Virus record (IMG/VR): IMGVR_UViG_2537561712_000026
DNA: 10,162 bases
Strand: one strand, 5' to 3'
From: a virus
Taxonomy: Duplodnaviria; Heunggongvirae; Uroviricota; Caudoviricetes
Position numbers and translations under genes: made by a program. The stretch's first letter is position 1. Every line of letters starts with the position of its first letter. Of this stretch, positions 1-10,162 are shown piece after piece. The notes below the pieces were generated by a model. That model made no database searches, was not told where the DNA came from, and saw nothing but the letters and a program-made list of their open reading frames with translations.

Positions 1-1362
1 ATGTTTAAACCGGAACTCCTTTCCCCGGCGGGAACGCTGAAAAATATGCGTTACGCTTTCGCTTATGGCGCAGATGCTGTTTATGCGGGCCAGCCGCGTT
101 ACTCCCTGCGTGTGCGCAACAACGAATTCAACCACGAAAACCTTCAGCTCGGCATCAATGAAGCCCACGCGCTGGGGAAAAAGTTTTATGTCGTGGTCAA
201 CATTGCACCGCACAACGCCAAGCTGAAAACCTTTATCCGTGACCTGAAACCGGTGGTGGAAATGGGGCCGGATGCGCTGATTATGTCCGATCCAGGGCTG
301 ATTATGCTGGTGCGTGAGCACTTCCCTGAAATGCCGATCCATCTCTCGGTACAGGCTAACGCCGTGAACTGGGCGACGGTGAAATTCTGGCAGCAAATGG
401 GACTGACCCGCGTGATCCTCTCTCGCGAGCTGTCGCTGGAAGAGATTGAAGAGATCCGCAATCAGGTGCCGGATATGGAGATCGAGATCTTCGTTCACGG
501 CGCACTGTGCATGGCCTACTCCGGTCGCTGCCTGCTCTCTGGCTATATCAACAAGCGCGATCCGAACCAGGGTACCTGCACCAACGCCTGCCGCTGGGAG
601 TACAACGTCCAGGAAGGGAAAGAAGATGACGTTGGCAACATCGTACACAAGTACGAGCCGATTCCGGTGCAAAATGTTGAGCCGACGCTGGGTATCGGCG
701 CGCCAACCGACAAAGTGTTTATGATCGAAGAAGCCCAGCGTCCGGGCGAGTATATGACCGCGTTTGAAGATGAGCACGGCACTTACATCATGAACTCGAA
801 AGATCTGCGCGCCATCGCCCATGTAGAACGCCTGACCAAAATGGGCGTGCATTCGCTGAAAATCGAAGGCCGTACTAAATCTTTCTACTATTGCGCACGC
901 ACCGCACAGGTTTATCGTAAAGCTATCGATGATGCCGCTGCGGGCAAACCGTTCGATACCAGCCTGCTGGAAACTCTGGAAGGTCTGGCGCATCGTGGCT
1001 ATACCGAAGGTTTCCTGCGTCGTCATACTCACGACGATTATCAGAACTACGAATACGGTTATTCAGTTTCTGACCGCCAGCAGTTTGTTGGTGAGTTTAC
1101 CGGTGAGCGCAAGGGGGACCTCGCGGCGGTAGCGGTGAAAAATAAATTCTCCGTTGGCGACAGCCTTGAGCTGATGACGCCGCAAGGCAACATTAACTTT
1201 ACCCTTGAGCACATGGAAAACGCCAAAGGCGAAGCTATGCCGGTAGCACCAGGCGATGGTTATACTGTGTGGCTCCCGGTGCCGCAGGATCTTGAGCTAA
1301 ATTACGCGCTGCTGATGCGTAATTTCTCCGGGGAAACTACGCGTAACCCCCACGGTAAGTGA
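1..1362 (+). CDS. rlhA: U32-family peptidase-like protein YegQ/RlhA (23S rRNA 5-hydroxycytidine synthase), complete
   Basis: 453-aa ORF starting at base 1. Translation recognised from memory as E. coli YegQ, same length, and its position immediately upstream of cyaR matches the K-12 order yegQ-cyaR-ogrK. Not database-verified. Confidence 0.88.
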   Translation: MFKPELLSPAGTLKNMRYAFAYGADAVYAGQPRYSLRVRNNEFNHENLQLGINEAHALGKKFYVVVNIAPHNAKLKTFIRDLKPVVEMGPDALIMSDPGLIMLVREHFPEMPIHLSVQANAVNWATVKFWQQMGLTRVILSRELSLEEIEEIRNQVPDMEIEIFVHGALCMAYSGRCLLSGYINKRDPNQGTCTNACRWEYNVQEGKEDDVGNIVHKYEPIPVQNVEPTLGIGAPTDKVFMIEEAQRPGEYMTAFEDEHGTYIMNSKDLRAIAHVERLTKMGVHSLKIEGRTKSFYYCARTAQVYRKAIDDAAAGKPFDTSLLETLEGLAHRGYTEGFLRRHTHDDYQNYEYGYSVSDRQQFVGEFTGERKGDLAAVAVKNKFSVGDSLELMTPQGNINFTLEHMENAKGEAMPVAPGDGYTVWLPVPQDLELNYALLMRNFSGETTRNPHGK

Positions 1363-1396
1363 TTAATTTCGATTATTTTTCCCGGATGGAAAATTC

Positions 1397-1446
1397 TTAG
1401 AAACCGATCACATACAGCTGCATTTATTAAGGTTATCATCCGTTTC
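1397..1446 (+). promoter_or_regulatory. cyaR promoter: candidate CRP half-site pair plus -10 element
   Basis: TTAGAAACCGATCACA at 1397..1412 (reverse complement TGTGATCGGTTTCTAA, resembling TGTGA-N6-TCACA) is centred about 42 bp upstream of the presumed cyaR 5' end. TATCAT at 1434..1439 is a plausible -10. CRP dependence of cyaR is established knowledge; the exact site assignment is my reading. Confidence 0.5.
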
Positions 1447-1533
1447 GCTGAAAAACATAACCCATAAAATGCTAGCTGTACCAGGAACCACCTCCTTAGC
1501 CTGTGTAATCTCCCTTACACGGGCTTATTTTTT
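1447..1533 (+). ncRNA. cyaR: CyaR (RyeE) Hfq-dependent small RNA
   Basis: Sequence GCTGAAAAACATAACCCATAAAATGCTAGCTGTACCAGGAACCACCTCCTTAGCCTGTGTAATCTCCCTTACACGGGCTTATTTTTT matches my recollection of cyaR. It contains the CCTCCTTA seed-like motif and ends in a hairpin (CCTGTGTAA...TTACACGGG) followed by a T-run. It sits between yegQ and ogr as in K-12. Confidence 0.8.
1507..1533. other. P2-type attachment core (prophage/host junction, attL or attR)
   Basis: AATCTCCCTTACACGGGCTTATTTTTT is the reverse complement of the 27-bp P2 att core as I remember it (AAAAAATAAGCCCGTGTAAGGGAGATT). It lies exactly between host cyaR and phage ogr, which is where attP sits in P2 (ogr-attP-int). Confidence 0.65.
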
Positions 1534-1574
1534 ACGCGTAATACAATGAAATAAAAGGATTTATTTCTGGTCAC

Positions 1575-1592
1575 GTCCACATATTGACCACA
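1575..1592 (-). promoter_or_regulatory. Possible integrase arm-type binding sites (direct repeats TGTGGAC / TGTGGTC, 11-bp spacing)
   Basis: On the minus strand TGTGGTC (1592..1586) and TGTGGAC (1581..1575) are direct repeats one helical turn apart in the att arm between core and ogr. They resemble the P2 Int arm-site motif as I recall it. Confidence 0.35.
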
Positions 1593-1597
1593 TCGAC

Positions 1598-1630
1598 AAA
1601 AAAAGCCCCTCAACTGAGGGGCTTTCTGTT
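1598..1630 (-). terminator. Rho-independent terminator downstream of ogr
   Basis: Minus-strand sequence AAAGCCCCTCAGTTGAGGGGCTTTTTTTG: 8-bp GC-rich stem (1604..1611 / 1615..1622) followed by a T7 run, directly 3' of the ogr stop at 1636. Confidence 0.65.
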
Positions 1631-1635
1631 TGTAA

Positions 1636-1854
1636 TTACATCCACATAATTTGCTGCCCTGACGGCAACGGGTGCGGTCTTACGGCGTGGACTTCTCCCG
1701 GCTTCACGATGTATCGCTGTACCGACTCATAAGTGATGAACGTGGCGCTGCAATTCACGTTCTGACACTGGTGATAACGCTCTTTTGTCGTGTCAGTGAT
1801 ATAGCGACTTGTACGCGCATGTGCGGCATGCTGGCATAAAGGACAATGAAACAT
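1636..1854 (-). CDS. ogr: Ogr late-gene transcriptional activator (zinc-finger, 72 aa)
   Basis: Translation MFHCPLCQHAAHARTSRYITDTTKERYHQCQNVNC... has the CxxC...CxxC zinc-binding motif and is recognised as P2 Ogr / K-12 OgrK. AGAGG Shine-Dalgarno 8 nt upstream of the ATG at 1854. The ORF track's 93-aa version uses an upstream in-frame ATG that I consider unlikely. Confidence 0.88.
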   Translation of the reverse strand: MFHCPLCQHAAHARTSRYITDTTKERYHQCQNVNCSATFITYESVQRYIVKPGEVHAVRPHPLPSGQQIMWM

Positions 1855-1935
1855 CGCGAGCACCTCTTCCGGTTTTGTTGATGGTGCCATTTTAGTTAAT
1901 TTATCCTTATAAAACAAACAGATAAAATAAAAACA

Positions 1936-3099
1936 TCATTCATCATCTTCTGTTTCGTATTCCACATCAGAAAGCCTGACCTCAAGCTCTAAGGACGTCG
2001 TGAAGCCGCTATTATTCAGAAAATGTGTCACCTTAGTGATGGTCCAGTCCTGCTCGTCTATGACGCGCTTAAAGCCTGACACTCTGACCGGTGTTTCCGT
2101 GTAAATATCTGCACGACCGGTAGCCAGGATGATGGAGAACTCCGCAACGCCCCGTTGCAGTTTGTCCCACTTCGCCTGAGCAGCACGCATGGCCTGTGCT
2201 TTCGTGGCATATACCGTGGTCAGGGCAAAAACGTTGTCAGCCTCACCGGCCATGTATTCACCTTCGCGCGCTTCCGGTACTTTTGGCGCTTTCTTCTGCC
2301 TGACCGGTTTCGCTTTCGGGTGCTCCAGTGCGCGCAGGTGTTTCTCTTTCTTTTTGCGTTTCAGTTTTACCTTCTGCTTTTGCGGTTTCGGGTCTTTGGT
2401 GTGTAACCACTTTGCCGTTACACCGGTATAGGCTCCACGGTCAGCAATCGCAAAATGATGGCGGTCGCCGTCGCTGCGGGTTATGGTGACCTGCGGGATT
2501 TTTTTACCGCTGGCCGTCACCCCCTGCCCCGCTTTGAGAAACAACAGTTTTCCCATTTTTACCGAGACCTCACCGCCGTTGCGTTCAGCAAGGCGGGTCA
2601 GGAATTTTGCATCAGACTCCTGCGACTGGTCGATGTGCGGGATTTTAATTCCGGCCAGTGACGGCGCGACACTGGCTTCCAGCCTGTTACGGGAGGCTAT
2701 TGCCTCAACAATCGCACCGAGCGTGGTGTCATGCCAGGAGTCTTCACGGCGGGAATTGAGCGTCCCGCGAAAATCTGCACTCCGGGCGCGGATGGTGACC
2801 ACATCCGGCGCGCCCCGGTGTTCAACCTCATCAACGGTAAATTTCCCTTTGCATACCAGGGCAAAACCTTTCCAGCCGATATACACCGTCAGGACAGCGC
2901 CACGAATCGGCAGCCCGACCTGCCCGTCGGCATCGTTCAGTTCAATATCAAGCTGGTCAGCCTCAAAGCCCCGGTTATCCGTCAGAGTCATGCTCATCAG
3001 ACGGTCGCTGATATTGCCGGTAATATCCCTGCTGTCGAGCATCAGCATGTAATCCGGCGTCAGCGTACTGCCTGCATCAAATGTCAGTGCATCCAGCAT
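1936..3099 (-). CDS. D: Tail/baseplate protein D (phage late control gene D family)
   Basis: 387 aa, the same length as P2 gpD. Position between U and ogr matches P2. Start ATG overlaps the U stop in a TAATG arrangement. Confidence 0.88.
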   Translation of the reverse strand: MLDALTFDAGSTLTPDYMLMLDSRDITGNISDRLMSMTLTDNRGFEADQLDIELNDADGQVGLPIRGAVLTVYIGWKGFALVCKGKFTVDEVEHRGAPDVVTIRARSADFRGTLNSRREDSWHDTTLGAIVEAIASRNRLEASVAPSLAGIKIPHIDQSQESDAKFLTRLAERNGGEVSVKMGKLLFLKAGQGVTASGKKIPQVTITRSDGDRHHFAIADRGAYTGVTAKWLHTKDPKPQKQKVKLKRKKKEKHLRALEHPKAKPVRQKKAPKVPEAREGEYMAGEADNVFALTTVYATKAQAMRAAQAKWDKLQRGVAEFSIILATGRADIYTETPVRVSGFKRVIDEQDWTITKVTHFLNNSGFTTSLELEVRLSDVEYETEDDE

Positions 3100-3578
3100 T
3101 ATCCCGCCCCCGTCATACCTGTGAATTTAGTCGCCATACTGCCAGCCTTACCGATGAGCGATTCCGCCTGTTTACCGATATCGCCATAAAGCGCGGCCAG
3201 TGGTTCGTCAACGCGGGTGAGCGACAGCGTAAAATCAATTTTTCGGGGTGTGCCGTCTGCAAAGAAAATACTCCCTGTTTCACTCACCCTGCTGATGACA
3301 TACATGCCGTAAATCATGCCGGTGCCATCCAGCAACGGCCACGCCCGACCTTCCTCTGCCATCAGCCTGAGCGTGGTCATCGTCAGCTTGCCGCCGGTCA
3401 GTTCGGGATAAAGCACACCGGCCAGCGTCATGTTTTCCTCGCCAACGCCGAGAAACTGGTAGGCATCCCGTTTACCGATACGGGAATTTGACGGCCAGCG
3501 ATAATCTGATTCACGCTGCATGGTCTGGTGTGGCAGCGTCTGGCGCATAAAAACAAACATACCTAACGCGAGCATCAT
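3099..3578 (-). CDS. U: Tail protein U
   Basis: 159 aa, the same length as P2 gpU, in synteny between T and D. Assigned by length and position rather than by direct sequence recognition. Confidence 0.8.
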   Translation of the reverse strand: MMLALGMFVFMRQTLPHQTMQRESDYRWPSNSRIGKRDAYQFLGVGEENMTLAGVLYPELTGGKLTMTTLRLMAEEGRAWPLLDGTGMIYGMYVISRVSETGSIFFADGTPRKIDFTLSLTRVDEPLAALYGDIGKQAESLIGKAGSMATKFTGMTGAG

Positions 3579-3592
3579 TTTTCGTCACCTCC

Positions 3593-6040
3593 TTAACCGT
3601 CATGCATCATGCTGGCACGGGCGCGCGCACGTTTATCCCGCTCGTATTTTTCGAGCGCATCCTGTAACTGGCGGTCAAGCTGTGTCCCCGGCGCAGTACC
3701 ACCCGTCAGGCTGATGTGATATTCGTTTTTACTCTGGTCCACATAAGAGCGGCCAGCCGGTGCCGTGACCGGCTGATAAGCCTGATAGCCTGCATAAGAG
3801 CTGGTCGCCGGAATATAACCACCGGTGCCATACGTGGCGGCATGAGTTCTGGCGGCGGTCTGGTCAAGTGTGTCTGACTCTTTGTTGATAACACCGAGTT
3901 TTTCCAGTACCCAGTCAATACCACTGCGCAGTTTGTTGAACGCATTAAGCGGCAGCATCAACGCGTCAGCCAGTGCCTGCCCGAACATGACGCCCGTGTC
4001 ACGGCAACGGTTCAGGGTGTCCTGGGTGGCTTTGACCGGGGCAATCAGTTTTTTAAACCACTGCCACGCGGCCTGTAACTTTTCACCCAGCCAGTCAAAC
4101 AGCGGCTTAAGTGGCGTGAACAGTTCCCCCACCGGCGCAAATGCAGCTTTCAGCCCTTCAACCACACCGCCAAAGAATGCGCTGACAGGCTCCCAGTATT
4201 TACGGATAAGCAACGCCCCGGCGACAATTGCAGCCACCACGGCCACAACCGGCCAGCTAATCGCCCCGATGGCCGTCATAACAGCACTGCCAACCGTCGT
4301 GAAGATTGCCCCCATTGCGCCTGCTGCCGCGATGATGGCATTAATGCCGGTGATAACCGGCCAGGCTACAAGACCAATTGCACCGATGATGCCAATAAGC
4401 GCCAGTGCGCCACCGACAATAAGGCCGATGGTTGACGCCAGTGATTTGTTTTTCTGGATCCAGCCGTCGAGTTTTAACACATACTTTGTGGCCGTCTGCG
4501 TGAGATTACGCAGTGCGCCTTCCTGTTGGTCAAACAGGTCAGTCCCCACCGCCTCATAAGCGGACTGAAACTCCTTAAAGTCACCGCCGAGGTTGTCCTG
4601 CATGATATTTACCAGCTCTGCGGTCTTCCCGTCTGAGGCTTTAAACGCAGCGGTCAGTTTGTCCAGCTTTCCGGTTGAGGCGGCAGTCATCAGCACGGCG
4701 GCGGCTGAACTGGCCTCCTCCCCGAAAATGGTTTTCATGTATTCAGCCTGCTGGGCAGTACCGAGCCGGTTTTTCTCAAAACTGGCCTGCATTTCTTTCA
4801 GAATGGTAAATATTGGTCGGGTATTCCCCTTGCTGTCTGAGGTTTTCACTCCAAGCTCTTTGAGTGCATCCCATGCTTTTCCCGTCGGTGCCTGCAGGCG
4901 ACTTAACACGGCACGGCTTCCCGTCCCCGCCATTGAGCCTGTGATTTTTGCATCATGCAGCGCCCCGACCATTGCGGCGGTTTCTTCAATGCTGACACCG
5001 GCATTTTTTGCCACAGGTGCGGCATAGGTCAGCGCATCGCTCATACCGTCAAAATCGGCGGCGGTTTTGTTCATCGTCATGGAGAGAACATCCCCGATAT
5101 GAGCAACCTTATCGTTTGAAAGCTGAAAGGCAGATTTCATCCCCATCAGCAGGGCGGCGTTTTCTTCCATCGTGCGACGGTTCGCCAGCGCCATATTCAG
5201 CGTGACCGGCGTTGCCGCCTGAATGGCATCAACATCCCCACCCGCTTTCGCGATGATAATCTGTGCACCGGCCGCATCATCCGCCGAGGCGGCGGTATTG
5301 TCGCCGAGCTGGCGCGCCTGCTTGCGTAGCGCGGCCATTTCGGCGGAGTCTTTTGCCACACCGAGCACGGCCTGTAATTCTGAGTTTTTCTGCGCAAATT
5401 CATAACCGGGCATCAGCAGCTTAACACCGGCCATCGTTCCCGCCGCCGCAATCCCCACACCGGCAGCGCCCACTGAGGCCATATTTCCGGCCAGCTCCTT
5501 TCCTGCCTGATAGCGCTGTTTTACTGCGTTAAGTTTTGCCTGTTGCGCACTGACACGCGCCAGCGCGTCACGCTGCCGGTTAAGCTGTGCGGTGGTTTCA
5601 CTGATACGGTTTTTCAGCCCCAGCTCATCATGTGCAAGATTGCGGGTATTAATTCCCACAGCGGCCAGTTCCCGCTGCTGGCGTTTAACGGAATCCGTCA
5701 GGCGGTTATATTTCGCCTGTAAGTCCTCCGCCGCACGCTTTGCGGATTCCAGCACTTTCGCCTGAGCACGGGTCGGACGTTCGGTGTTTTTAAACTGTGT
5801 GGCAAGGGCTTCGGCCTCCTGCCGTGCCTTTTCAAGTGCATGACCAGTCACGGCGAGCTGTGCGCTGGTCTTGCGGAATCCCTCAATACGGGATGCCTGC
5901 CCGTTCAGCTCGCGCAGTGATTTTTGTGTTTCCCGGATATCCCCCGACAGCGACTTACTCGCTGTGCGGATGGATTTAAACGGGCGGGATGCCTGGTCAA
6001 CAGCCCTGAGCAATACCTGTAATTTTACATTGTTACTCAT
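3593..6040 (-). CDS. T: Tail tape measure protein T
   Basis: 815 aa (P2 gpT length). Coiled-coil-rich N-terminal half, a Gly/Ala/Ile-rich hydrophobic central segment, and the expected position downstream of E/E'. Confidence 0.9.
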   Translation of the reverse strand: MSNNVKLQVLLRAVDQASRPFKSIRTASKSLSGDIRETQKSLRELNGQASRIEGFRKTSAQLAVTGHALEKARQEAEALATQFKNTERPTRAQAKVLESAKRAAEDLQAKYNRLTDSVKRQQRELAAVGINTRNLAHDELGLKNRISETTAQLNRQRDALARVSAQQAKLNAVKQRYQAGKELAGNMASVGAAGVGIAAAGTMAGVKLLMPGYEFAQKNSELQAVLGVAKDSAEMAALRKQARQLGDNTAASADDAAGAQIIIAKAGGDVDAIQAATPVTLNMALANRRTMEENAALLMGMKSAFQLSNDKVAHIGDVLSMTMNKTAADFDGMSDALTYAAPVAKNAGVSIEETAAMVGALHDAKITGSMAGTGSRAVLSRLQAPTGKAWDALKELGVKTSDSKGNTRPIFTILKEMQASFEKNRLGTAQQAEYMKTIFGEEASSAAAVLMTAASTGKLDKLTAAFKASDGKTAELVNIMQDNLGGDFKEFQSAYEAVGTDLFDQQEGALRNLTQTATKYVLKLDGWIQKNKSLASTIGLIVGGALALIGIIGAIGLVAWPVITGINAIIAAAGAMGAIFTTVGSAVMTAIGAISWPVVAVVAAIVAGALLIRKYWEPVSAFFGGVVEGLKAAFAPVGELFTPLKPLFDWLGEKLQAAWQWFKKLIAPVKATQDTLNRCRDTGVMFGQALADALMLPLNAFNKLRSGIDWVLEKLGVINKESDTLDQTAARTHAATYGTGGYIPATSSYAGYQAYQPVTAPAGRSYVDQSKNEYHISLTGGTAPGTQLDRQLQDALEKYERDKRARARASMMHDG

Positions 6041-6206
6041 TCGTGTTTCCGCTTCGCCTGAGCGCCTTTTCGCGCCATGTGATGAGTTCGGTCAGGCTCA
6101 TGGGATACAGTTCTGATGGCGGCCAGTGAAATACCACTGCCACATCCGCCATCAGGTCATCGACCGAGAGATTTTTCGGAAACGTCACTGCACCGAGTTC
6201 GGCGAC
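6033..6206 (-). CDS. E': E' extension of the tail assembly chaperone, reached by programmed -1 frameshift from E (E+E' fusion 142 aa)
   Basis: Slippery heptamer TTTTTTG on the minus strand (plus 6206..6212) lies 6 codons before the E stop. Reading on in the -1 frame gives 57 more residues (VAELGAVTFPKNLSVDDLMADVAVVFHWPPSELYPMSLTELITWREKALRRSGNTNE) and stops at TAA 6033..6035, overlapping the T start (ATGAGTAA). 85 + 57 = 142 aa, the P2 E+E' length. Confidence 0.8.
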   Translation of the reverse strand, partial: VAELGAVTFPKNLSVDDLMADVAVVFHWPPSELYPMSLTELITWREKALRRSGNTNE

Positions 6207-6460
6207 AAAAAACCGACCACCTTACCGGCCAGCGCCACAAGGTCAGGCAGTTCCAGCGCGGCGACCTCCTGTTCGGTCAGCATCGGTGCCGTCATGCGCG
6301 GCAGCACTTTAATCAGTGCATCGACTTCGGAGTTCGCGACCGCAGCCAGACTGACACCGCGCAGCGTCCCGGCATTGGGTTTCATCAGCGTGACCTGTTC
6401 GATAACCTGCTCACCACGCTTGACCGGATTGTCCAGGGTAATCACATTTTCTTTGTTCAT
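6185..6460 (-). CDS. E: Tail assembly chaperone E
   Basis: 91 aa, MNKENVITLDNPVKRGEQ...; length and sequence recognised as P2 gpE; located between FII and T. Confidence 0.88.
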   Translation of the reverse strand: MNKENVITLDNPVKRGEQVIEQVTLMKPNAGTLRGVSLAAVANSEVDALIKVLPRMTAPMLTEQEVAALELPDLVALAGKVVGFLSPNSVQ

Positions 6461-6488
6461 GGTTTTCTCACTTCTGAATCAGGGTTAA

Positions 6489-6509
6489 CCGGTCAGCCTG
6501 GCTGACCGG
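6489..6509 (-). other. Intercistronic stem-loop between FII and E (no U-tract)
   Basis: CCGGTCAG-CCTGG-CTGACCGG: perfect 8-bp inverted repeat with a 5-nt loop in the 56-bp FII-E spacer. Followed by TTAACCC rather than a T-run, so not a classical intrinsic terminator. Confidence 0.4.
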
Positions 6510-6516
6510 ATGAAAA

Positions 6517-7035
6517 TCACAGGCCGATATTGCGGCGGTGTTGCTCCAGCCGGTCGACGCCGTTCACCTTCTCAATCATGTTGATGGTGTCGATTTCGAC
6601 CAGCTCCTTACCGTCCATCGTCAGCCGGAAATAGGTGCAGACCACGGAGATTTTCGACTCGGTGTCTTCTCCCTGTTTACCCTCGCCGGTGTCGATTTCT
6701 TTCTGACGGCCACGCATGACCACCTCGACGGCCACCGTTTCGCCGGTATCGTCGCGCTGGTAAGAGCCTGCAAAACGAATCGGTACGGCATCCACACCGG
6801 TTGCGGCGTAAAGCTCCCAGATAACCGAATCCGGGAAGCCACCGAGCGACCACTCCATTGACAGCGCATCGTCATCAAGGCCGAGGTCTACCGGTGCGCT
6901 GCCATTCATCCCCGCACCGCGATAGTTTTCGAGCTTACGGGTCAGTTTTGGCAGCGTGACGGACTTCGCGACGCCCTGATAGCTGTAGCCGTTCAGAAAG
7001 ACGTTCATTAACTTGAGTTTGCGCGGCATTGCCAT
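6517..7035 (-). CDS. FII: Major tail tube protein FII
   Basis: 172 aa (P2 gpFII length); sequence recognised; AAGGAG Shine-Dalgarno upstream; follows FI with a 12-bp gap. Confidence 0.9.
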   Translation of the reverse strand: MAMPRKLKLMNVFLNGYSYQGVAKSVTLPKLTRKLENYRGAGMNGSAPVDLGLDDDALSMEWSLGGFPDSVIWELYAATGVDAVPIRFAGSYQRDDTGETVAVEVVMRGRQKEIDTGEGKQGEDTESKISVVCTYFRLTMDGKELVEIDTINMIEKVNGVDRLEQHRRNIGL

Positions 7036-7047
7036 CGGTCAGGCTCC

Positions 7048-8238
7048 TTAATTGCTGTTAACCGAGGTGACCAGATTTGCCAGGTATTTATCGGTGATAC
7101 GCTGGCGCAGGGTCAGGTTTTCAAGAGGAGGTACCGGTGTATAGTCGTAGTCGATATACAGTTTTCCGGCCTTGAGGGTTTCCGCATCGCTGGATTCTTC
7201 GCTGAACCAGCAGGTCGCATCCACGATATAGCCGTTTGTTTTCAGCTCACGGAATTTGGCATTGATGCCGTCAACGATGTCGCGAATCAGCGTTGCGGTG
7301 ATGGGCTTGTCCACCGCCCACATGTGCGCCTCAGCCATCGTGTCGGCCAGCACCTGCGCGGTGCGGGTGTAGTTTTCAAAGAGGAACAGCGGGTCATCAG
7401 AGCAGGTACGGTTACCCCAGAAGCGGAAACCGTCGCGGCGAATCAGCGTAGTGACGCCTGACTCGTTAAGCAGGTCAGCATCGGTGCCGGACTCCTGCAA
7501 ATCCCAGAATACAGATGCGCTGATGCCGTTAACACCGTTTACCCCGACGTTGGACAGCGTTTTATGCCAGCCCTGCTCCTGGTCGATTTTAGCGCGCAGA
7601 CCCAGCGCACGGGCGGTGGCATACGCGGTGGCGGTGGTGCTGCTGACCGTATCCCATGCGAGGAAATCCGGCCAGATGACCATCAGCTCACGCTGGCTGA
7701 AATTCTGGCGGTAGGCTTTCACCTCGGAAATGGTTTTACAGCCCCATGCGCTGATATACCCGAAAGCGCGCAGCTTCTGACAGACTGATGCCAGTGCAAC
7801 AGCCACCTCTTTGGTGTCCAGTCCCGGCACGCCGAGAATACGCGGTTTAACACCGGTTACCGACTCTGCCGCCAGCAGGGCTTTCAGTCCGGTATACTGA
7901 CCGTTTTCGTCAGTGGTGCCGATGATATTGGAAACGGTCTGCGCGAGTTTCGTTTCTTCGTCGTCGCCGGTGCCGTCTTCAACACGCACGACAACGGTAA
8001 CCGGTTTTGACTGGTCAGCGATGGCCTGCAACGATGCCGCCAGCGTGCCTTTTTTACCGGCCTTTGCAATTGCGCTCTGCACATTGGTAATCAGCACAGG
8101 TTTATTGAGGGGGAAGGTTTCCGCATCCGCATCGCTGGCCGTGCAGACCATGCCGACAATGGCGGTGGATACGGTGGAAATGACGCGGGTGCCGTCGTTA
8201 ATCTCCAGCACCTGCACGCCGTGATGATAATCACTCAT
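7048..8238 (-). CDS. FI: Contractile tail sheath protein FI
   Basis: 396 aa (P2 gpFI length); sequence recognised as P2-type tail sheath; first gene of the FI-FII-E-T-U-D operon. Confidence 0.9.
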   Translation of the reverse strand: MSDYHHGVQVLEINDGTRVISTVSTAIVGMVCTASDADAETFPLNKPVLITNVQSAIAKAGKKGTLAASLQAIADQSKPVTVVVRVEDGTGDDEETKLAQTVSNIIGTTDENGQYTGLKALLAAESVTGVKPRILGVPGLDTKEVAVALASVCQKLRAFGYISAWGCKTISEVKAYRQNFSQRELMVIWPDFLAWDTVSSTTATAYATARALGLRAKIDQEQGWHKTLSNVGVNGVNGISASVFWDLQESGTDADLLNESGVTTLIRRDGFRFWGNRTCSDDPLFLFENYTRTAQVLADTMAEAHMWAVDKPITATLIRDIVDGINAKFRELKTNGYIVDATCWFSEESSDAETLKAGKLYIDYDYTPVPPLENLTLRQRITDKYLANLVTSVNSN

Positions 8239-8335
8239 CCGTTTAACTCCGTGGTTAATGGGTGAGTGATATTTTCAGTTGTGCCGGAGATGTCAGGCTA
8301 TTTGTCCCGGTTGGCTAAGGGATGACACAATTTAT
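8239..8335 (-). promoter_or_regulatory. Expected Ogr-dependent late promoter region for the FI operon (element not resolved)
   Basis: Position only: P2 late promoter P_F lies immediately upstream of FI. I could find only imperfect TGT-N12-ACA-like dyads here (for example TGT-N12-CCA on the minus strand around 8311..8329). The region overlaps the 3' end of the invertase gene. Confidence 0.3.
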
Positions 8336-8891
8336 TCTTTGTCGCTGATGAGGGGAATTTTTTATAGAGCGTGGACAGGCCAATATCAAAAATCAGCGCC
8401 ACACGTTGACGAGATTCCCCCGCAGCCAGCAACCGTCCGACCTGCTCCCACTCACTCGTGGTGAGTTTCGGTCGTCTGCCACCAATACGACCTTTGGCTC
8501 TGGCCGCTTCCAGTCCGGCGCGTGTCCGCTCGACAATGAGTTCTCGCTCCATTTCTGCCAGGGCCCCCATCACATGAAAGAAAAAGCGCCCCATCGGCGT
8601 GCTGGTATCAATAGCATCCGTCAGGCTGCGAAAATTAACGCCGCGTTCGCGCAGTTCCTCAACCAGAATGACCAGATGCCGCATACTACGCCCCAGCCTA
8701 TCCAGCTTCCAGACTACCAGAGTGTCACCTGCTGATAATGTTCTGAGCAGTTTTTTCAGTCCCGGTCGGTCGGACTTCGTGCCGCTGATTTTATCCTCAA
8801 AAATCAGCTCACATCCTGCACACTCCAGCGCATTACGCTGCAATTCCGTGTTCTGGTCATTTGTTGACACGCGTACATAGCCAATAAGCAT
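8298..8891 (-). CDS. Serine DNA invertase, Hin/Gin/Cin/Pin family
   Basis: Translation MLIGYVRVSTNDQNTELQRNAL...VVWKLDRLGRSMRHL...MGRFFFHVMGALAEMERELIVERTRAGL...GRIGGRRPKLT...STLYKK closely resembles E. coli Pin and Mu Gin, with the catalytic Ser in YVRVSTNDQ and a C-terminal helix-turn-helix. Start chosen at the ATG at 8891 (197 aa); ATG 8897 is an alternative. The ORF track's 265-aa version (to 9095) has a 66-residue N-terminal extension I consider non-coding. Confidence 0.85.
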   Translation of the reverse strand: MLIGYVRVSTNDQNTELQRNALECAGCELIFEDKISGTKSDRPGLKKLLRTLSAGDTLVVWKLDRLGRSMRHLVILVEELRERGVNFRSLTDAIDTSTPMGRFFFHVMGALAEMERELIVERTRAGLEAARAKGRIGGRRPKLTTSEWEQVGRLLAAGESRQRVALIFDIGLSTLYKKFPSSATKNKLCHPLANRDK

Positions 8892-8946
8892 GAGCATCTC
8901 CCTGAATAAAAACCGGAGATGATGCCAGTTACCCGTTATTTCTGCA

Positions 8947-8972
8947 TTTTCATAAACGTTGGTTTGGGAGAA
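8947..8972. other. Candidate 26-bp inversion crossover site (hix/gix/cix-like), left border of the invertible segment
   Basis: TTTTCATAAACG-TT-GGTTTGGGAGAA has the 12-2-12 architecture and the AAACC/GGTTT-type inner half-site motifs of hixL and gixL as I recall them (TTCTTGAAAACC-AA-GGTTTTTGATAA, TTCCTGTAAACC-GA-GGTTTTGGATAA). It lies 56 bp upstream of the invertase start and inside the open tail-fibre frame. Confidence 0.5.
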
Positions 8973-9445
8973 GCGGCAAAACGGGATGTGGGGACAGGGG
9001 AAAATCAGCCACTCCGCCGACAGGCTGGCTGAAATGCAACGGGGCGGCTTTTTCTGCTGAAGAATACCCGGAACTGGCAAAGGTTTACCCGACAAATAAA
9101 TTGCCTGATTTACGTGGTGAGTTTATTCGTGGCTGGGATGACGGACGTGGAGTGGATAACGGAAGGGGATTATTGACGCTTCAGGACGGTGCGATTGTCA
9201 GTCATAACCACTATTGGGGAATCTGGACTTCACGAACTAACGACCAGACTCTGGAAAGTTTTACAGGCACCACGATTTTAAAACAAATCACGCCCCTGTC
9301 TCCGGCCATTAACTTCGATAATTACCCAATTCCCAACCCGGCTATTACAGAGGGTGGTGTTGTTGCGGCAACGACTAAACCTGCAGGTGCGAATGAAACA
9401 CGCCCACGAAATGTCGCTTTTAACTATATTGTGAGGGCTGCATAA
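8960..9445 (+). CDS. Tail-fibre C-terminal variable (receptor-binding) cassette; no start codon or promoter in this orientation
   Basis: The frame is open from 8906 to the TAA at 9443..9445 with no in-frame ATG (the track starts it at a TTG at 9101). It encodes ...GWLKCNGAAFSAEEYPELAKVYPTNKLPDLRGEFIRGWDDGRG...RPRNVAFNYIVRAA, resembling the C-terminal region of P2 H and Mu S (AYPKLAVAYP...LPDMRG...NIAFNYIVRLA). It begins at the candidate crossover site. Confidence 0.6.
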   Translation, partial: WFGRSGKTGCGDRGKSATPPTGWLKCNGAAFSAEEYPELAKVYPTNKLPDLRGEFIRGWDDGRGVDNGRGLLTLQDGAIVSHNHYWGIWTSRTNDQTLESFTGTTILKQITPLSPAINFDNYPIPNPAITEGGVVAATTKPAGANETRPRNVAFNYIVRAA

Positions 9446-10047
9446 TGAATAACGCAGAATTAAACAGTGAATTAATTGCCACTATGGCAGGAGAAATTAC
9501 TGTTTATAACTTTGATGTCATGAGTCGGGAATATATTTCAGCTTCAACTGAATATCTTGCTATTGGTGTCGGCATTCCGGCATATTCCTGTTTAGATGCC
9601 CCAGGCGCATACAAAGCTGGTTATGCAATCTGCCGTTCTGCAGATTTTAACTCATGGGAATATGTGCCAGACCATCGCGGTGAAATCGTCTTTAGCACCG
9701 AAACAGGAGAATCAAAAGAAATCACCGCTCCGGGTGATTACCCTGATAATACAACCACTATCGCCCCGTTAACGCCATACGATAAATGGGATGGTGAGAA
9801 ATGGGTGACGGATACCGAAGCACAGCATAGCGCCGCAGTAGAAGCGGCAGAAACACAACGCCAGTCGCTGATTGATACTGCAATGGCTTCCATTAGTCTG
9901 ATTCAGCTGAAATTACAGGCCGGACGGAAGCTGACGCAGGCAGAAACCAACCGACTTAACACGGTGCTGGATTACATTGACGCGGTGACGGCAACAGATA
10001 CCAGCACCGCGCCGGATGTCATCTGGCCTGAACTGCCGGAGGCGTAG
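9445..10047 (+). CDS. Tail-fibre assembly (chaperone) protein, Tfa / P2 G / Mu U family
   Basis: 200 aa. ATG overlaps the upstream TAA (TAATG coupling). C-terminus ...LDYIDAVTATDTSTAPDVIWPELP has the conserved Tfa C-terminal motif. Confidence 0.8.
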   Translation: MNNAELNSELIATMAGEITVYNFDVMSREYISASTEYLAIGVGIPAYSCLDAPGAYKAGYAICRSADFNSWEYVPDHRGEIVFSTETGESKEITAPGDYPDNTTTIAPLTPYDKWDGEKWVTDTEAQHSAAVEAAETQRQSLIDTAMASISLIQLKLQAGRKLTQAETNRLNTVLDYIDAVTATDTSTAPDVIWPELPEA

Positions 10048-10162
10048 GCCATTCAATATCTGGCGCACTGGCGGTATCGACCAGCTCCAGTGCGTCCAGA
10101 TAATCCAGCCACAAATTATATTGTGCCAGTTCCTCACCTTTCAGATGGTAATGGATGGATGA
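10019..10162 (-). CDS. Second tail-fibre assembly protein, C-terminal 47 codons only (5' end beyond window)
   Basis: Minus-strand frame reads ...HYHLKGEELAQYNLWLDYLDALELVDTASAPDIEWPTPPAVQAR with stop at 10019..10021. This is the same conserved Tfa C-terminal motif, convergent with and overlapping the plus-strand tfa by 29 bp. It is absent from the ORF track because no start codon lies inside the window. Confidence 0.65.
   Translation of the reverse strand, partial: SSIHYHLKGEELAQYNLWLDYLDALELVDTASAPDIEWPTPPAVQAR

Follow-up and report, generated by a model that had tools for sequence, protein, structure and literature searches.

The right end of the 10,162-nt stretch of DNA analysed here (the window) very probably represents the invertase-proximal half of an invertible tail-fibre segment of the Pin/Gin type, which belongs to the P2-like prophage beside yegQ in E. 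coli O157:H7. The tail-fibre switch of this prophage is already known, and the window holds no new system; the junction beside the invertase, on the other hand, is a hybrid of the two orientations of the segment, which most likely originated in the draft assembly of the source contig.

The assignment to a P2-like prophage is supported by the gene order. Genes ogr, D, U, T, E/E', FII and FI are found on the minus strand of the window, and the late genes of P2 are arranged as ...V W J I H G / FI FII E E' T U D ogr; between G and FI, this order is interrupted by the invertase and the second fibre cassette. In the relatives the P2 late gene set is complete, and H, I, J, W, V, S, R, the lysis genes and the capsid genes are found beyond the region covered by the window, whose source draft contig, AODY01000126.1, stops 2 nt past its end. 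Outside the segment, 9 kb of the window are 100% identical to the relatives. The same element, with the same architecture, is found in Escherichia phage pro483 (Peduovirus, NC_028943) at 95% identity, and in the O157:H7 prophages at the yegQ site in one orientation of the segment (state A; EC4115 and CP032808) at 98.9-99.8% identity, the differences lying in the hybrid patch described below. Identity to genomes with the other orientation (state B; GCA_017081335) is 100% if the comparison is made separately for the stretch on the invertase side and for the interior of the segment, each in its own orientation. The invertase, the Collar tip, the two convergent tfa genes and H are all annotated in pro483 and the O157 relatives. 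As a side observation, PGAP splits the intact H gene of EC4115.

A sequence-only reading of the window had proposed that a start-less fibre frame on the plus strand abuts an invertase on the opposite strand, and the invertase was readily identified as a serine recombinase of the Pin/Gin/Hin/Cin family (197 aa, 8298-8891, minus strand; an alternative upstream ATG lies at 8897). The protein matches the Pfam families Resolvase (E=3e-52) and HTH_7 (E=5e-13) as well as the structure of Mu Gin (3UJ3; E=1e-93 over residues 1-182). Its identity to PinE of e14 is 86.7%, and it differs from PinE by a C-terminal extension of 13 aa. Its ORF is intact, and the catalytic Ser9 is located within YVRVSTNDQ. 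As judged from a degenerate motif and conserved residues, the 5' end of the invertase gene probably contains an enhancer that binds Fis and is used by the enzyme. The putative Fis-dependent recombinational enhancer (8807-8869, minus strand) is a pair of 15-bp Fis-like motifs (8855-8869 and 8807-8821) with a spacing of 48 bp and a distance of ~97 bp to the crossover site; the motifs match the degenerate Fis consensus at +23 and +71 of the invertase gene, the same positions as in pinE and Mu gin. Both the spacing and the distance are in agreement with those of the Hin enhancer (PMC3798978), and the residues of Hin that contact Fis, Q151/R154/L155 (PMC3798978), have the counterparts Q150/R153/L154 in the invertase.

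The invertase-proximal boundary of the segment is formed by a 26-bp crossover site, TTTTCATAAACG-TT-GGTTTGGGAGAA (8947-8972; central dinucleotide at 8959-8960), which is alignable with Mu gix and identical to the pinE-proximal site of e14. It is the one site in the window; in the relatives its inverted partner is found 1,875 bp away, a position that falls past the end of the source contig. That the segment is invertible, as had been proposed from the sequence, is borne out by near-identical genomes that carry it in both orientations: the flanks of CP032808 and GCA_017081335 are identical, and the interior of the segment (1,875 bp) in one is the exact reverse complement of that in the other, with 0 differences. 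The orientation switch between genomes maps inside a shared 15-bp core, TTGGTTTGGGAGAAG. In a set of 5,426 complete E. coli genomes, collinearity with state A was observed in 207 and with state B in 257. In the complete relatives H is a continuous ORF of 399 aa with a gp53-like tip in state A, and of 439 aa with a Collar tip in state B. The inversion is thereby demonstrated for relatives, whose shared parts match the window at 100% identity, rather than for the isolate itself; both the e14 segment and the segment of a P2-like prophage occur in both orientations in clonal E. coli cultures (PMC4272514).

Within the segment, the frame at 8906-9445 on the plus strand is open for 179 codons after a TGA at 8903-8905, and contains no ATG, GTG or TTG ahead of the TTG at 9101. 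It matches the Pfam family Collar (PF07484, E=2e-12), and its part at 9009-9445, with the stop codon at 9443-9445, is a Collar-type variable C-terminal tip of a tail fibre, which is 59% identical to StfE of e14 and which state-B genomes carry as the C-terminal end of fibre protein H (439 aa). The expected start-less fibre C-terminal domain is therefore present in this frame; the accompanying statement that no ATG is available holds for the frame 8906-9445 itself, but not for the neighbouring frame of the constant part, in which an ATG lies outside the segment, at 8919. In the assembled contig, the Collar tip adjoins the invertase in the unexpressed position and is detached from the constant part, and thus has no start codon. 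It had been proposed to be the silent alternative, with the constant part of the fibre gene on the minus strand to the right, and this is the arrangement in the complete relatives EC4115 and CP032808 and in phage pro483. The tip is coupled to a gene for a TfaE-like tail-fibre assembly chaperone (9445-10047, plus strand; 200 aa; Pfam Caudo_TAP, E=1e-32; 86% identical to TfaE of e14), the ATG of which at 9445 overlaps the TAA at 9443-9445 by one base. On the minus strand the C-terminus of a second, convergent tail-fibre assembly gene (Caudo_TAP, E=3e-11) can be read from 10162 to its stop codon at 10019-10021; the 3' end of this gene spans 42 codons (10019-10145), and the relatives are collinear with and 100% identical to the window as far as 10145. 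In the relatives the full-length gene encodes a TfaP-like protein of 147 aa that serves the gp53-like tip. The coupling and the 29-bp overlap of the two tfa genes at their 3' ends (10019-10047) are as first read, and an identical 29-bp overlap is found in tfaP/tfaE of e14 and in O157 EC4115.

These features suggest how the switch would work. The constant part of H comprises 280 codons ending in ...LAYLGLGE; it is encoded by the minus strand past the right-hand end of the window and is not included in the invertible segment. Within the 1,875 bp of the segment are two alternative C-terminal tips that face each other, each followed by its own assembly chaperone, i.e. a Collar-type tip with the 200-aa Tfa and a gp53-like tip with the 147-aa Tfa. 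The plus strand of the window encodes the Collar tip and the 200-aa Tfa, and its minus strand carries the 3' end of the second tfa gene; the rest of the 147-aa Tfa and the gp53-like tip are supplied by the relatives. The serine invertase would recombine the two inverted 26-bp sites, so that either tip could be joined in frame to the constant part, and the receptor specificity of the fibre would be changed; a role of the switch in host range is accordingly probable.

The suggested Sv-U / U'-Sv' layout beside an invertase matches both classical systems to which the segment can be compared. The P segment of e14 in K-12 (pinE, stfE, tfaE, tfaP, stfP/ycfK) has the same gene order and orientations (StfP-TfaP> <TfaE-StfE, PinE), an identical invertase-proximal 27-nt site region, a TfaP with 53% identity and, in its reference orientation, a start-less StfE-type Collar tip beside the invertase, as in the window. 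However, e14 is a lambdoid remnant, whereas the host element here is a P2-like myovirus prophage with a P2-H-type constant part (Phage_tail_fib); the second tip is gp53-like here and StfP-like in e14, and the Collar cassette of the source contig has a hybrid, frame-breaking 5' end, unlike that of e14. The G segment of Mu, with its highly similar invertase Gin and the genes S/U and S'/U', shares the layout Sc[Sv U> <U' Sv'] gin, the transcription of the invertase away from the segment, and 26-bp sites with a conserved AAACC..GGTTT core. It differs in its length (~3 kb), in the non-overlapping U and U', in variable tips that are unrelated in sequence to those here, and in the central dinucleotide of the site, which is GA/TC in gix and AA/TT here. 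In the multi-site fibre switch Min of p15B, an invertase and inverted sites likewise generate alternative fibre C-termini. In the P2-like prophage of EPEC E2348/69, which follows the same principle, three inverted repeats give rise to different C-termini of the fibre, and clonal cultures contain the variants side by side (PMC4272514), whereas the relatives of the window have two sites and two tips only.

The unusual residues between the crossover site and the Collar tip (KRWFGRSGKTGCGDRGK) had raised the suspicion of a frameshift, and indeed 7 nt are lost relative to the intact relatives. These residues are an out-of-frame reading; the neighbouring frame of the same DNA encodes FINVGLGEAAKRDVGTGENQ, which is the natural joint between the constant and the variable part, so that there is a real frame break between 8974 and 9008. 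As revealed by alignment to EC4115, this interval (plus strand) is a hybrid patch that contains the first 12 codons (AAKRDVGTGENQ) of the gp53-like cassette; its last four nucleotides, TCAG, are common to both cassettes. The first 46 nt of the Collar cassette have been replaced by the first 39 nt of the gp53-like cassette, and because of the net loss of 7 nt the frame of the constant part stops at 9030-9032. The Collar cassette in the window is consequently out of frame with the constant part by 7 nt; the constant gene itself lies beyond the end of the contig, and in the relatives the fusion is in frame in both forms of H, with the intact junction GLGE-GSALPVGVPVPWPSATPPTGWLKCNG. Canonical junctions consist of the crossover site followed by GTTCGGCATT... 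or by CGGCAAAACGG...ATCAGATACCGG, whereas the hybrid junction (plus strand, within 8940-9040) reads GAAAATCAGCCACTCC, with the breakpoint between GAAAATCAG and CCACTCC. Positions 1-9008 of the window are 100% identical to state-B genomes; over positions 9005-10145 the match, again at 100%, is to the interior as oriented in state A.

A second anomaly is found at the end of the contig, where a 17-nt tail (10146-10162) stands in the place at which all relatives continue with ACGACCAATAGC...; the contig reads ATGGTAATGGATGGATGA, then AA, and ends. The tail junction (within 10120-10164) is formed by TTTCAG followed by ATGGTAATGG, and the tail resembles the 'GDGWMK' stretch of the gp53-like cassette. 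The collinear sequence ends 21 nt after the last SNP that separates the prophage from a second pinE-type fibre locus in another O157 strain. A natural variant of the tfa gene was rejected as the source of the tail, as the relatives all continue as above, and so was the end of an IS element, as the tail is not known to match any IS terminus. In the collections searched, neither the hybrid junction nor the tail occurs outside the source draft contig: the exact hybrid junction has no match in the 5,426 complete E. coli genomes, the GTDB representatives or IMG/VR, and the tail has none in the E. coli genomes, IMG/VR, the GTDB representatives or any fetched locus, a blastn search with 39 nt matching the tfa half of the query only. 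Both predicted hybrid H proteins are absent among 15 billion proteins, in which both intact forms of H are present.

As to the cause, the hybrid junction is most likely a chimera of the draft assembly, a reading that we put at somewhat better than even. Such a hybrid could come from a culture with both orientations, combined with a second prophage that bears an almost identical fibre cassette. However, the assembly is otherwise good, the window being identical to its relatives over the 9 kb outside the segment; we know of no common assembly algorithm that joins sequences via a 4-nt overlap (TCAG); and by a rough scoring estimate, made without simulation, a pure 39-nt patch is not what a reference-guided consensus should cleanly produce. 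An untrimmed 454 or Ion Torrent key was rejected as the origin of TCAG, which is native at all three places in the intact relatives. No literature on the accession of the source assembly (GCA_000335235.2) was found.

It is possible, though rather doubtful, that the hybrid junction and the tail are real, and that a microhomology-mediated rearrangement put the start of the gp53-like cassette before the Collar tip, by inversion at secondary TCAG sites, by template switching between the inverted arms, or by an MMBIR-like insertion of 1,141 nt between TCAG and AT. The patch is a 100% copy of the first 35 nt of the other cassette, ending at a 4-nt microhomology on which assemblers do not normally join sequences; both junctions fall at the same point of the gp53-like cassette, between TCAG and AT, as would be expected from a single insertion or template-switch event; and the 9-kb flank is free of errors. 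Nevertheless, thousands of related genomes show the junction only once, in a draft contig, and the second junction lies 21 nt from the contig end, the match beyond it needing a 25-nt gap and a mismatch. By inspection, the sequence around TCAG fits the crossover-site consensus poorly, its flanks likewise fit the half-site consensus poorly, on which ground the TCAG positions were rejected as classical invertase quasi-sites, and the tail is unexplained by a simple inversion at secondary sites. Furthermore, cultures normally mix both orientations and the cassette is repeated in another prophage, both of which are classic sources of misassembly. Were the junction real, the Collar alternative would be frame-shifted and the flipped fibre gene would end in ...GLGEAAKRDVGTGENQPLRRQAG followed by a stop codon, at 299 aa, a reciprocal hybrid on the H side having 304 aa; the switch would alternate a truncated fibre with one working tip at best, and the inverted repeat would be lengthened from 15 to about 54 bp.

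The ATG at 8919 raises the question of whether the Collar cassette is not silent at all, but is expressed alone as a small free-standing protein, which we consider very improbable. In favour of such a protein, an ATG-initiated ORF runs across the site in O157 (177 aa, through the Collar tip), in pro483 (176 aa) and in e14 (stfE), and the 177-aa product of the intact relatives is annotated as 'phage tail protein', like StfE of e14. However, no plus-strand sigma-70-like promoter was found upstream of the ORF, and GGAG is located 0-3 nt from the ATGs, a poor Shine-Dalgarno spacing for ribosome binding, so that independent expression is unlikely. Moreover, the residues upstream of the site differ between e14 (MPFACYFF) and O157 (MMPVTRYFC); the protein would not have the N-terminal Phage_tail_fib domain carried by H, which probably fixes the fibre to the baseplate; stfE of e14 is a pseudogene in RefSeq; and in the window the ORF is ended early by the frame break, after 37 codons (8919-9032, plus strand; MMPVTRYFCIFINVGLGEAAKRDVGTGENQPLRRQAG followed by the stop). 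The 37-aa product has no record in the protein collection. Separately, the look-up of a 114-aa ORF in this collection returned only an unrelated Logan contig with sequencing errors of its own and a normal junction.

Hardly more credible is the view that the segment has decayed into a fixed remnant unable to invert, with a layout that is a fossil of a former switch: the frame break in the source contig and the retention by K-12 of only the P2 remnant ogrK at the prophage's site speak for it, but the invertase ORF with its Ser9 and the crossover site are both intact, the relatives have the complete P2 late gene set, and clonal O157:H7 genomes differ by the exact flip alone, the two states being about equally frequent.

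The fibre switch itself is textbook biology, as known from the Mu G, P1 C and e14 P segments, and annotations of this very switch already exist for phage pro483 and for hundreds of O157:H7 genomes. A start-less fibre fragment beside an invertase should be read as an alternative cassette, not as a pseudogene. Invertible, repeated prophage segments are also spots where draft assemblies break or turn chimeric, and frame breaks in such segments should not be taken as gene decay without a look at the reads. If the hybrid junction nonetheless proves to be real, it would provide a natural example of fibre switches that decay or are reshuffled via recombination away from the canonical crossover site, and a modest case of off-site recombination degrading a phase-variable host-range switch.

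The window is an exact match to contig AODY01000126.1 (52,647 nt; assembly GCA_000335235.2), and 9,008 nt of it, outside the invertible region, match E. coli O157:H7 prophages at 100% identity. Its first base is that of the start codon of the host gene yegQ (1-1362), which adjoins a P2-type tail module on the minus strand (ogr, D, U, T, E/E', FII and FI; 1636-8238). The prophage terminates in ogr (1636-1854, minus), which leaves about 270 bp to yegQ; at the corresponding place K-12 retains the ogrK remnant alone. Two overlapping ORFs in the module (6185-6460 and 6033-6188; 6033-6460, minus) are the counterpart of the P2 E / E+E' tail chaperone pair, a product of programmed -1 frameshifting, and the second of them is 39 or 51 aa long depending on annotation. 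The module is followed by a serine recombinase gene (197 aa; 8298-8891, minus; Resolvase and HTH_7 domains) and a plus-strand open frame with a Phage Tail Collar domain (8906-9445; E=2e-12), which, as the sequence-only reading held, is a start-less fibre tip beside an opposite-strand invertase, with no ATG, GTG or TTG before 9101. The tail-fibre assembly gene coupled to this tip (200 aa; 9445-10047, plus; Caudo_TAP, E=1e-32) meets a second, minus-strand Caudo_TAP gene, of which the window holds the last 47 codons; the stop of the latter (10019-10021) sets the 29-bp 3' overlap that the same reading had reported.

The system is a member of the Pin/Gin/Hin/Cin invertible tail-fibre switches, working alike, in a P2-like prophage. 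Alignment of the invertase to phage Mu Gin (PDB 3UJ3) covers residues 1-182 (E=1e-93) and shows the catalytic Ser9 at its position. Identity to PinE of the K-12 e14 element is 86.7%; PinE has 184 aa and lacks the additional C-terminal tail ...SSATKNKLCHPLANRDK of the window invertase (8298-8336, minus). The 26-bp crossover site (8947-8972; TTTTCATAAACG-TT-GGTTTGGGAGAA) is identical to the pinE-proximal site of e14 and aligns with Mu gix. The Sv-U / U'-Sv' layout proposed from the sequence is borne out by e14, whose order StfP-TfaP> <TfaE-StfE then PinE is that of the window, 29-bp tfa overlap included (TfaE 86% and StfE 59% identical to the window proteins), and by the equivalent Sc[Sv U> <U' Sv'] gin of Mu. 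In Escherichia phage pro483 the module is found at 95% identity, its genes labelled as an invertase, a tail collar fibre protein and two assembly proteins; this phage, together with hundreds of O157:H7 genomes, represents a P2-like prophage in which the system is already known. Two family features have to be read from relatives identical over the shared DNA, in which both are present: the in-frame fusion across the site fails in the window because of a 7-nt frame break, and the partner site is off the contig. AODY01000126.1 stops 2 nt (AA) after position 10162, so the right crossover site and the constant fibre gene are unreadable for this isolate.

The constant part that had been expected on the minus strand to the right is present in O157:H7 EC4115, a complete genome in state A (the orientation of the window), as a continuous 399-codon fibre gene, H. 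Its constant part of 280 codons ends in ...LAYLGLGE and is continued across the partner site by a gp53-like tip (AAKRDVGTGENQIPDMASFASGDGWMK...). RefSeq/PGAP divides this stop-free frame (NC_011353.1, 9251-10450, minus) into a pseudogene, 'phage tail protein, incomplete, missing C-terminus', and a separate 'gp53-like domain-containing protein'. In O157 genomes of the opposite orientation, state B (GCA_017081335, ABHL02000001 and others), H, at 439 aa, carries the Collar tip at its C-terminus (...GLGE-GSALPVGVPVPWPSATPPTGWLKCNG...); the gp53-like tip is the one adjoining the invertase. CP032808 (state A) and GCA_017081335 (state B) have identical flanks; the stretch of 1,875 bp bounded by two 15-bp cores TTGGTTTGGGAGAAG in the one is the exact reverse complement of that in the other (0 differences). 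In a set of 5,426 complete E. coli genomes, a state-A query has 207 collinear matches and a state-B query 257, and in e14 and P2-like prophages read-pair analysis has found both orientations together in clonal cultures (PMC4272514). The exact inversion and these mixed cultures support the view of the cassette as the silent alternative of an invertible segment. A flip would join the start-less tip to the N-terminal part of H, and the missing start codon is explained because the tip takes its N-terminus from H. A related prophage lineage (GCA_023641805.1 and GCA_016389015.2, 7060-9970; tail genes 97% identical) has a different, longer gp53-like tip (H of 467 aa) and a 162-aa Collar ORF, with unchanged crossover cores; therefore, a tip has been replaced within one switch.

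The invertase gene matches the degenerate Fis consensus at positions +23 and +71 (8855-8869 and 8807-8821). These two matches are spaced by 48 bp, at a distance of about 97 bp from the crossover site, and pinE and Mu gin have matches at equal gene positions. The spacing and distance agree with those of the Hin enhancer, whose two Fis sites have centres 47 bp apart about 100 bp from hixL, and Hin residues Q151/R154/L155, which contact Fis (PMC3798978), have counterparts in Q150/R153/L154 of the window invertase; these motifs suggest a putative Fis-bound enhancer. As for an upstream plus-strand promoter and start that the sequence-only reading might have missed, no sigma-70-like plus-strand promoter was found ahead of the Collar cassette, while a start was: at ATG 8919, outside the segment, where intact relatives begin a 177-aa ORF that reads through the site and is annotated by PGAP. 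This ATG has poor Shine-Dalgarno spacing, e14 stfE is classed as a pseudogene, and independent expression of the cassette from this ATG is unlikely. No sigma-70-like promoter was detected for the invertase. In the interval that separates the crossover site from the start of the invertase, a weak hairpin resembling a terminator, with a T-run after it (8911-8930, minus), might shield the invertase from late fibre operon read-through.

The frameshift suspected from odd residues is real in the sequence as deposited: the string KRWFGRSGKTGCGDRGK is not protein, and the constant-part frame of the same DNA gives FINVGLGEAAKRDVGTGENQ. Aligned with EC4115, the window has 39 nt (CGGCAAAACGGGATGTGGGGACAGGGGAAAATCAG) in place of the 46 nt of the Collar cassette after the site (GTTCGG...GGCCTTCAG, coding for GSALPVGVPVPWPS). 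The 39 nt are exactly those that open the gp53-like cassette, and the Collar cassette resumes at a common TCAG (9005-9008). The net change is -7 nt, and therefore a flip at the canonical sites would yield ...GLGEAAKRDVGTGENQPLRRQAG* (299 aa) without a tip. Positions 1-9008 match state B at 100%, and 9005-10145 match the segment interior in state-A orientation at 100%. After ...CCTTTCAG (10145), where all relatives go on ACGACCAATAGC..., the contig has ATGGTAATGGATGGATGAAA and then ends; this 20-nt tail matches the GDGWMK stretch of the gp53-like cassette with two mismatches (chance expectation 0.01 for the 18 nt of it compared with EC4115). Both anomalies therefore stem from the first roughly 85 nt of that cassette, and the contig has the formal appearance of a gp53-like cassette interrupted at TCAG|AT by 1,141 nt.

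We lean towards an assembly artefact as the source of both the hybrid junction and the tail. Among the collections searched they are confined to AODY01000126.1, being absent from the complete E. coli genomes, GTDB representatives and IMG/VR, and a collection of 15 billion proteins contains the 399- and 439-residue forms of H and neither of the two predicted hybrids. Alignment beyond the second junction, which lies 21 nt from the contig end, takes a 25-nt gap and a mismatch. Cultures are mixtures of orientations (PMC4272514), and this segment is a break point in other draft assemblies too. Moreover, a second fibre locus of the pinE type occurs in another O157 strain, with about 1.1 kb near-identical in common, and the collinear part of the contig ends 21 nt beyond the last SNP distinguishing the two loci. 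A real, microhomology-mediated rearrangement is the less probable origin, and we would call it rather unlikely; in its favour, the patch copies the other cassette perfectly and is joined at microhomology, one breakpoint is common to both junctions, assemblers do not normally join on 4 nt, and the remaining contig is error-free.

ORF-level look-ups in the segment pick up assembly noise, as a short Logan contig shows (SRR24451066_2677), whose small indels, e.g. GAATACCTGAACTGG, 1 nt (a G) short of the reference, lead to spurious ORF calls. The second pinE-type invertible fibre locus is that of O157:H7 TR01 (NZ_CP033605.1, 308567-311586); the part it has in common with the segment of the P2-like prophage is 97% identical overall, and near-identical in the gp53-like tip and its assembly gene, tfa147. 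Such repeats could confuse assemblies, and could permit invertase action across loci.
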